From a virus, in the IMG/VR virus record IMGVR_UViG_3300044980_000021, positions 1-45,983 of that record: a stretch of DNA of 45,983 bases. One strand, written 5' to 3'. Position numbers and translations under genes: made by a program. Under the pieces are notes generated by a model that saw nothing but the letters and a program-made list of their open reading frames with translations, did not search any database and had not been told where the DNA came from. Below, piece by piece: positions 32,017 to 32,571 of this stretch; positions within the stretch are counted from its first letter, which is position 1; each line of letters starts with the position of its first letter.

Positions 32017-32571
32017 ATGGATTCAAAAGAAGTAACAAAATTGCTAGTGAAATTGGGCGCATGCACAGAAGCAAGTTCATGGGCTAAAGGCAAGTCTCTT
32101 GCTGATATTTGGGAACAATGCGAACGCCCCGATTGGCTACTGTGGTTGTGCGGACGAATGGCGGGTAAAGATGGATGGTCTGATCGCAAAGCCATCGTCT
32201 TGGTAGCGTGCGATTGCGCAGAATTGGCACTTCCTTACGTCAAGAAAGGCGAAGATCGTCCGCGACTTGCCATTGAAACTGCGAGGGCATGGTTGCGCGG
32301 TGAAGCAACTATCGAGCAGGTAAGAGAGGCTCGTCGGGCTGCTTATGCTGCTTATGATGCTGCTTATGCTGCTGCTTATGCTGCTTATGCTGCTTATGCT
32401 GCTGCTGCTGCTGCTGCTGCTGCTTATGCTGCTGCTGCTGCTGCTGCTGCTGCTGCTGCTGCTGCTTATGCTGCAAGAAAAGACATGCGCGAAAAGTGCC
32501 TATCTATTGTCCGTACCAAACTGATTCCAGAATGTCTTAAGATTTCACTACAAGAGGCCAGCCATGATTGA
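32017..32571 (+). CDS. Ala-rich helical-repeat protein with Ala/Tyr microsatellite tract, 184 aa
   Basis: Start moved to ATG 32017, with a GAGGAG SD. N-domain VLVACDCAELALPYVKKGEDRPRLAIETARAWLRGEATIEQVREARRAAYAAY, then AAY/poly-Ala. Confidence 0.75.
   Translation: MDSKEVTKLLVKLGACTEASSWAKGKSLADIWEQCERPDWLLWLCGRMAGKDGWSDRKAIVLVACDCAELALPYVKKGEDRPRLAIETARAWLRGEATIEQVREARRAAYAAYDAAYAAAYAAYAAYAAAAAAAAAYAAAAAAAAAAAAAYAARKDMREKCLSIVRTKLIPECLKISLQEASHD
32338..32475 (+). repeat. In-frame trinucleotide microsatellite: GCT/TAT units including perfect (GCT)9 and (GCT)13
   Basis: (GCT)9 at 32398..32424 and (GCT)13 at 32428..32466. All 36 consecutive Ala codons are GCT, interspersed with TAT. Confidence 0.95.

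Follow-up and report, generated by a model that had tools for sequence, protein, structure and literature searches.

An Imm5-like gene in a tailed-phage genome segment

The window, by which we mean the whole 45,983-nt stretch of viral DNA that was analysed, is a segment of a tailed-phage genome. The genes that bear on the present analysis are:

27786-29393, minus strand: terminase, 535 aa (weak match, E = 6e-6)
30419-33463, plus strand: rightward cluster of small open reading frames (ORFs) that holds the Imm5-like gene
31749-31982, plus strand: Lar-like restriction-alleviation protein, 77 aa, the upstream neighbour (PF14354, phrog_599)
32017-32571, plus strand: Imm5-like gene, 184 aa (ORF list, translation, Pfam Imm5_like, AF2)
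32564-32782, plus strand: downstream ORF, 72 aa, with a hydrophobic C-terminus (ORF list)
34842-36152, minus strand: DnaB-like helicase
37107-37877, minus strand: RecE-like exonuclease
38011-38922, minus strand: Erf-like annealing protein

Five large leftward ORFs at 1463-26328 on the minus strand (1169, 1707, 444, 424 and 827 aa) are presumed to be structural and gave no PHROG match at E ≤ 1e-5. As judged from its sequence, the window phage is distant from characterised phages; a megablast search of the 2.5-kb neighbourhood of the gene against GenBank phages returned nothing, and a tblastn search found one distant archaeal-virus hit.

The Imm5-like gene starts with an ATG at 32017 and ends with a TGA at 32569-32571, and a GAGGAG box at 32004-32009 lies 7 nt 5′ of the ATG. 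A longer ORF starting at 31816 was rejected because it overlaps the upstream gene and because all homologues begin where Met1 lies. The 72-aa ORF on the downstream side shares 8 nt with the 3′ end of the Imm5-like gene, which suggests that the two are translationally coupled, and had no Pfam, PHROG or PADLOC hit. The upstream neighbour, which had been called Lar-like in an earlier note made from the letters alone, proved to be so by profile, with a PF14354 score of 32.4 bits against a cutoff of 28.6 and a phrog_599 match at E = 1e-7. PADLOC gave no hit for the Imm5-like gene or its neighbours, searches with Pfam, PHROG and PADLOC found no toxin or defence gene adjoining it, and promoter and terminator scans gave results at chance level.

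A codon-pure triplet-repeat tract within the gene

Within the Imm5-like gene the following parts were distinguished:

32017-32181, plus strand: N-terminal module, aa 1-55, with A15-C16, W32, C35, W40 and W43 (invariant alignment columns)
32182-32331, plus strand: Imm5_like core helices, aa 56-105, including CDCAE and RPR..IE..R.W (PF21805)
32338-32475, plus strand: in-frame imperfect triplet-repeat tract, the distal part of a hairpin (Tandem Repeats Finder, codon count, AF2)
32398-32424, plus strand: perfect (GCT)9 run (regex scan)
32428-32466, plus strand: perfect (GCT)13 run (regex scan)
32476-32568, plus strand: C-terminal segment, aa 154-184, RKDMREKCLSIVRTKL... (AF2, alignment)

Residues 65-113 of the protein read CDCAELALPYVKKGEDRPRLAIETARAWLRGEATIEQVREARRAAYAAY, and the protein sequence of the tract is AAYAAYDAAYAAAYAAYAAY-A9-Y-A13-YAA. 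The tract spans 138 nt and 46 codons, comprising 36 GCT, eight TAT, one GAT and one GCA, and Tandem Repeats Finder reports the same array at 32338-32475. The 36 GCT Ala codons and the perfect (GCT)9 and (GCT)13 runs described in the earlier note were recovered by codon count and regex scan, and the series of consecutive Ala codons that are GCT extends to 37 when Ala105 is included. Elsewhere in the same gene the Ala codons are GCA (6), GCG (3), GCC (3) and GCT (2), while in the long ORFs of the window GCT makes up 26% of Ala codons and TAT 48% of Tyr codons. The chance of the uniform Ala codons of the tract is about 0.264^36, or about 1e-21, and that of its uniform Tyr codons about 0.48^8, or about 0.003. 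A regex scan found no GCT/AGC triplet run of more than three units elsewhere in the window. The tract also gives rise to two spurious ORFs, one at 32309-32476 on the minus strand that is rich in Gln, His and Lys and one at 32345-32524 in another plus-strand frame that is rich in Leu and Met, both of which are by-products of the repeat and not genes.

Assignment to the Imm5_like family

The family of Ala-rich helical proteins that the earlier note had described without a confirmed name is Pfam Imm5_like (PF21805). The full window protein scores 34.4 bits against this profile (cutoff 25), and aa 1-107, with the tract deleted, score 37.6 bits, the match covering aa 56-105 and profile positions 7-59. 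Because the score rises without the tract, the assignment is independent of low complexity. Residues 1-55 are not covered by the Pfam model but are highly conserved, and the model itself takes in Ala-rich helices. An alignment of 90 Imm5-like proteins, from which the invariant columns were taken, also shows a conserved R.K.L..CA..VR motif in the C-terminal segment and near-invariant R37, D39, R81, R83 and R90. Zhang et al. 2012 describe Imm5 as 'Mostly alpha; R, D', a motif of conserved R and D onto which these residues could not be mapped. The threshold of the Imm5 profile PF14423 is missed by the window protein and reached by its relatives P0108 and P0112. In PHROGs the window protein falls in two families of unknown function. 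A search with the full protein found at least 1346 clusters among the candidates screened, and a search with the N-domain only found 3938 representatives of 50%-identity clusters at E ≤ 1e-3 and 1562 at E ≤ 1e-10.

Imm5 was defined by comparative genomics alone as a mostly alpha-helical predicted immunity protein; it has been linked to DYW-clade deaminase and CdiA-CT toxins and is often found in polyimmunity loci and polyimmunity proteins (Iyer et al. 2011, PMC3239186; Zhang et al. 2012, PMC3482391). A literature search for the family name found no mention of PF21805. By its profile matches, the window gene is a new member of this known large family with a predicted immunity role. It resembles Imm5 and Imm5_like in its Pfam score, in having close relatives that match PF14423 as well, in its predicted mostly alpha fold and in having relatives that are arranged in tandem or, in one case, as an 11-repeat protein. 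It differs in being phage-borne (its relatives are carried by phages and prophages) with no toxin gene adjoining, in the additional conserved 55-aa N-terminal module outside the Pfam model, and in having a codon-pure triplet repeat as the coding sequence of its Ala-rich helices. For Imm5 itself, immunity is a function predicted from toxin association, and for this subfamily the role is likewise a putative one.

Two to four tandem Imm5-like copies occur in 12 of 178 loci, whereas the window has a single copy. Among such arrays in phage or prophage contigs are:

L062, 7268-9304
L025, 5998-7228
L109, 1057-3564
L002, 2220-3464 (two Imm5-like copies, fully identical)
L142, 6001-9206

In addition, the 2410-aa protein P0144 combines 11 Imm5_like repeats with Imm5 and weak Imm6 signals. 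We liken the tandem arrays and this 11-repeat protein to the polyimmunity loci and polyimmunity proteins of Zhang et al. 2012.

The related loci that we compared comprised 52 from IMG/VR, 11 contigs of the closest proteins, 78 from metagenomes and 46 from a genome collection, the last of which were picked on N-domain motifs only and are therefore unbiased with respect to the tract. A Lar-like gene was found beside relatives in 0 of 187 related loci at E < 1e-4, and none of the genes of the plus-strand cluster of the window recurs beside relatives. Among the flanking minus-strand genes, m33494 recurs in L062, m33922 in L007, L002 and L162, and m34266 in L002. The second of these (33922-34371, minus strand, 149 aa) belongs to phrog_503, a family of unknown function, and has kin a few kb or less away from Imm5-like genes in L002, L007 and L162, the strongest neighbour recurrence found.

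Otherwise the relatives have varied neighbours, among them an HTH_17 gene and genes for lysozyme, DNA methyltransferases and a helicase. Of the genomic relatives, the two Imm5-like genes of L142 are closest to the window gene, at 62% identity; they lie between lysozyme, TerL and portal genes, inside the packaging module of an Acidobacteriaceae prophage. This prophage occupies 800-11610 of a 405-kb contig of an Acidobacteriaceae metagenome-assembled genome (MAG) and carries Prim-Pol, TerS, lysozyme, TerL, portal and S49 protease genes. The sequence relationship gives a hint that the host of the window phage is acidobacterial. Since the neighbours of the relatives vary and the prophage copies sit in a packaging module, the 'early operon' and 'anti-defence neighbourhood' of the earlier note are plausible for the window and are not traits of the family.

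The tract is predicted to form the tip of a helical hairpin

The AF2 model of the window protein, built with the 90-sequence alignment, is all-alpha (pLDDT 91.6, pTM 0.80). Six short core helices are followed by two that make up the hairpin (99-131 and 136-168), and the turn between these two, at 132-135, falls within the Ala9 run. Residues 154-168 form the end of the hairpin's return arm, and residues 172-182 a last helix. Within the tract, pLDDT is 71-80. In the model of P0005, a relative with a longer tract, the core is unchanged and the hairpin extends over 99-141 and 146-190. The tract is thus predicted to be the distal part, or tip, of a long helical hairpin whose length follows the repeat number.

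Non-Ala residues are found three positions apart 1101 times, against 408 in shuffled tracts, and four positions apart 443 times, against 268, while adjacent non-Ala residues are depleted. This spacing fits the placement of non-Ala residues on one face of a helix; the excess at a spacing of three could also be yielded by a 9-nt DNA unit alone, without selection. The predicted long antiparallel Ala hairpin, with larger residues three or four apart, recalls the 'Alacoil' and the Ala-rich helices of type I antifreeze proteins, but there is no sequence or structure match to these and the likeness is one of geometry alone. Neither a sequence search of the PDB nor a Foldseek search against it gave a significant match to the window protein. 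The rank-5 Foldseek hit, 7jtu_B, comes from a deaminase-toxin entry and was set aside at a probability of 0.08. The structural neighbours that were found are solely uncharacterised or Imm-5-like proteins of uncultured phages.

Codon purity is the norm among relatives

Among the 163 distinct relatives with a tract, the commonest Ala codon had a median share of 1.0 and a share of at least 0.9 in 137. The dominant Ala codon was almost always GCT or GCC, and GCG- or GCA-rich tracts amounted to a handful. The earlier note held that the repeat of this phage had recently become a pure microsatellite. Its purity stands, but the recent, phage-specific event does not, because single-codon tracts are the family norm and the codon purity in the window reflects long-standing repeat turnover. 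Recent expansion is suggested only for the Ala9 and Ala13 runs, which are unusually long. Ala13 is the longest Ala run in the family sample, in which relatives reach 12 and the longest run has a median of 4-5 in the three large locus sets; the Ala-rich regions as a whole range from about 20 to about 120 residues.

A second regularity concerns the third codon position, which is at least 90% pyrimidine in the tracts of 146 of the 163 relatives, compared with a median of 44% outside the tract in the same genes. The tracts of the genome-collection loci, selected on the N-domain, are still 90% pyrimidine. In the viral set the third positions are C in 1464 cases, T in 1302, A in 42 and G in 20 (97.8% pyrimidine), and the pyrimidine-ending codons include those for Ser (TCY), Thr (ACY), Val (GTY), Asn, His and Asp. 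These tracts contain hardly any Lys, Glu, Gln, Leu, Met or Trp, and Arg is uncommon in them. Loci with GCT-type and GCC-type tracts have a median GC content of 41% and 60%, respectively (p = 2e-18). Where a GCC tract has TAT for Tyr, it uses GAT for Asp and AAT for Asn. The Thr, Ser and Val codons of a tract always carry the third base of its Ala codons. Such shared third bases indicate that units were copied and then point-mutated at positions 1 and 2. A literature search on triplet-repeat variation in phages returned nothing relevant, and we did not find the family-wide tract pattern described in the literature searched.

The pyrimidine bias brings to mind diversity-generating retroelements (DGRs). 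The variable regions of DGRs are likewise localised near the C-terminus and use NNY codons, in which changes at positions 1 and 2 cannot give stops, and the tracts of the viral set vary at positions 1 and 2 while keeping a pyrimidine at position 3. A DGR or some other targeted mutator would not, however, account for the prevailing kind of change: length differences dominate, which DGRs do not produce, and the tracts consist mostly of GCY rather than of randomised codons. In scans of the window, no second stretch resembled a template copy of the tract, NNY periodicity was confined to the tract, and none of the large ORFs had a YxDD motif. The lack of a reverse-transcriptase motif and of a template copy led us to rule out a DGR origin here, and we consider it scarcely credible that a targeted mutator drives the variability of this length-variable, Ala-dominated tract.

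The tract diverges between otherwise near-identical genes

No conspecific contig of the window was found in IMG/VR, the JGI metagenomes or the genome collection (best 64% identity) or by tracing the closest protein hits to their contigs (best 70% identity), and an exact-protein lookup of the window protein returned no other contig. The comparison of related contigs that the earlier note had proposed nevertheless answered its question of whether the tract is invariant, in that near-identical relatives differ in tract length and do so in frame.

L055 and L057 are identical at 315 of 315 nt of the N-domain and 654 of 655 nt downstream and have the same flanking genes, whereas their tracts are 70 codons of pure GCT/TAT/GAT and 48 codons of mixed GCT/GCC, respectively. 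The L057 gene (1562-2146, P0004) also carries an 11-residue duplication, with ATIESVREARR present twice, at the 5′ edge of its tract. The 82-kb contig L062 holds three tandem copies with 99.3-99.6% identical N-domains, identical C-termini and near-identical spacers, in which the tracts have 54, 62 and 65 codons, all of them GCC/TAC/GAC/TCC. The two tandem copies of L025 have 100% identical N-domains and Ala-rich regions of about 74 and 123 aa. L028 and L030 agree at 276 of 276 nt of the N-domain, and their tracts differ by one unit together with N to D and Y to F replacements. L005, L006 and L019, with 0-1 mismatch in the N- and C-domains, have tracts of equal length that differ by D to H and A to T. 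A comparison of L024 with L025 as an allelic pair was rejected, since L025 holds both versions in tandem and the two are therefore paralogous.

Alleles and tandem paralogues with 99-100% identical flanks thus differ in tract length and residue order, and repeat-number polymorphism amid otherwise identical sequence is seen in L055/L057, the L062 copies, the L025 copies and L028/L030. Because the flanks are identical where the tracts differ, the tract is a family-wide hotspot shaped by the gain and loss of units and by point mutation.

We considered whether this hotspot might act as a hypermutable contingency locus, in which length variants would coexist within one phage population and differ from virion to virion. 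The (GCT)9 and (GCT)13 runs, the perfect short-unit repeats of the window, are long enough to slip. The plus strand of the tract, a CTG-type repeat, folds well as single-stranded DNA (-34.3 kcal/mol, z = -3.9), compared with -20.4 kcal/mol and z = -2.1 for the complementary strand. Moreover, in 33 of 163 relatives the end of the contig truncates the ORF, and several viral contigs stop inside the tract (L008, L009, L016, L020, L034, L047 and L052, among others), which is compatible with either heterogeneity or assembly difficulty. However, the L055 allele was also found in L056, that is, in two independent samples, and the L057 allele also in L058-L060, that is, in four, and the tracts of L005, L006 and L019 are equal in length. 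Recovery of the same alleles shows that the tract alleles of a relative persist across samples, and the tract is fast-evolving but not chaotic. Virion-to-virion variation seems unlikely to us. With simple-sequence contingency loci the window shares in-frame perfect runs of 9 and 13 units of a single codon, and the relatives share length differences between otherwise identical genes. The Imm5-like repeat differs from such loci in that it does not turn expression on and off but changes how long a structural element is and how it is decorated, and in that it belongs to a phage accessory gene in which it has been kept across thousands of divergent members with only a pyrimidine in third position.

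Tract changes keep the reading frame in the compared relatives save in the second copy of L142 (8634-9206) and in P0056. In both, part of the tract is out of frame and rich in Arg and Leu (RRLRRLRRRR...); in the L142 copy the reading returns to the Ala/Tyr frame after this part. These tracts reflect either indels that are not multiples of three or long-read errors. The latter bears on the suggestion that the pure runs themselves are artefacts of assembly or sequencing: repeats of low complexity invite errors, the contigs of many relatives break at the tract or downstream of it, and out-of-frame tracts occur in one MAG that is probably long-read. The longest perfect run of the window is nevertheless 39 nt, less than the usual length of reads and assembler k-mers, the TAT interruptions are unique anchors, the frame and the conserved C-terminal helix are intact, and the same architecture recurs in hundreds of independent assemblies. 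We regard an artefact as very improbable.

Slippage or unequal recombination as the probable source of tract variation

Codon-pure poly-Ala or poly-Gln tracts are an accepted signature of slippage. We consider it probable that the window gene encodes an Imm5_like all-alpha phage protein with a hairpin that varies in length, across the family, through a repeat prone to slippage or recombination, and that this protein most likely binds and neutralises a host or competitor protein. According to this proposal, a conserved globular N-domain would be followed by one long antiparallel hairpin, the distal part of which is nearly all Ala, Tyr and Asp. Replication slippage or unequal recombination would add or remove whole codons or multi-codon units, and would stretch or shorten the hairpin while leaving the core undisturbed. 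Point mutations would hit codon positions 1 and 2 and the third base would simply be inherited, so that each tract would come to consist of one Ala codon and one class of Tyr/Asp codon. The same process would recently have made (GCT)9 and (GCT)13 in the window phage.

Slippage or unequal recombination together with point mutation is the simplest explanation of the tract, slippage being a mechanism that we infer from sequence comparison. The folding of the plus strand would be in keeping with slipped-strand intermediates. Whole tracts may in addition be exchanged by recombination, since L055 and L057 differ by many GCT/GCC changes, which go beyond what slippage alone would give. The earlier note had attributed the tract to slippage rather than to selected sequence; the DNA repeat is indeed of slippage type, but 'rather than selected' is too strong in view of protein-level constraints.

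Slippage leaves the near-lack of GCA- and GCG-based tracts unexplained. One possibility for the near-universal pyrimidine in third position is that weak selection at the codon level is amplified as whole tracts sweep together. We rejected the idea that GCY is kept because it offers a stop-free route from Ala through Asp to Tyr, since the GAT and AAT codons in tracts that combine GCC with TAT indicate that NAY codons form a separate lineage. Hairpin stability was likewise rejected as a rule for the choice of strand, CTG being the more stable and CCG the less stable strand of their respective repeats.

Possible roles of the variable hairpin

A cognate toxin gene alongside, or a place within a polyimmunity locus, would mark an immunity gene; the window gene has no toxin or defence hit among its neighbours and is a single copy, and some relatives stand in homogeneous tandem arrays. 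Binding and neutralising a protein encoded by the host or a competitor would be its most likely function, and the hairpin of such a putative inhibitor would either contribute to specificity or be merely tolerated.

If it were merely tolerated, the tract would be functionally neutral, slippage-prone filler that is kept because the hairpin accepts any length, and its variation would be non-adaptive. The range in length of the Ala-rich regions noted above would be expected of such filler, as would the 8 of 46 genome loci in which the low-complexity tract is missing, the ordinary sequence that L040 and L043 have in its place, and the existence of frameshifted tracts in L142 and P0056. Yet the tract has persisted through most of an old and very large family, its residues are strictly confined to A, Y, D and small numbers of N, H, S, T and V, its non-Ala residues show the helix-like spacing, tandem paralogues differ essentially in the tract alone, and the Pfam model includes the Ala-rich helices. 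Neutral filler is a possible account, though one that we lean against.

A more far-reaching version of the inhibitor reading, which we hold to be distinctly unlikely, would make the tract the specificity tip of a phage inhibitor family and a generator of diversity that needs no reverse transcriptase, with stacked copies and a pyrimidine rule that is itself selected. Slippage and point mutation, operating within stop-free NNY codons, would keep remodelling the hairpin. Stacked near-identical copies that differ in the hairpin only would then amount to a phage polyimmunity locus, and would let the phage follow the changes in polymorphic toxins or defence effectors of its hosts.

A codon-pure, mostly pyrimidine-ending coding triplet repeat is common to several thousand genes of phages, prophages and bacteria, and it diverges while its flanks are identical. 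If the hairpin sets specificity, this would be a simple and widespread route by which phages diversify a binding surface and would provide a handle on the function of Imm5-like proteins. If it is merely tolerated, these genes would offer a clean natural system in which to follow triplet-repeat dynamics and concerted evolution in phage genomes. The repeat tracts also explain why metagenomic contigs frequently break at Imm5-like genes.
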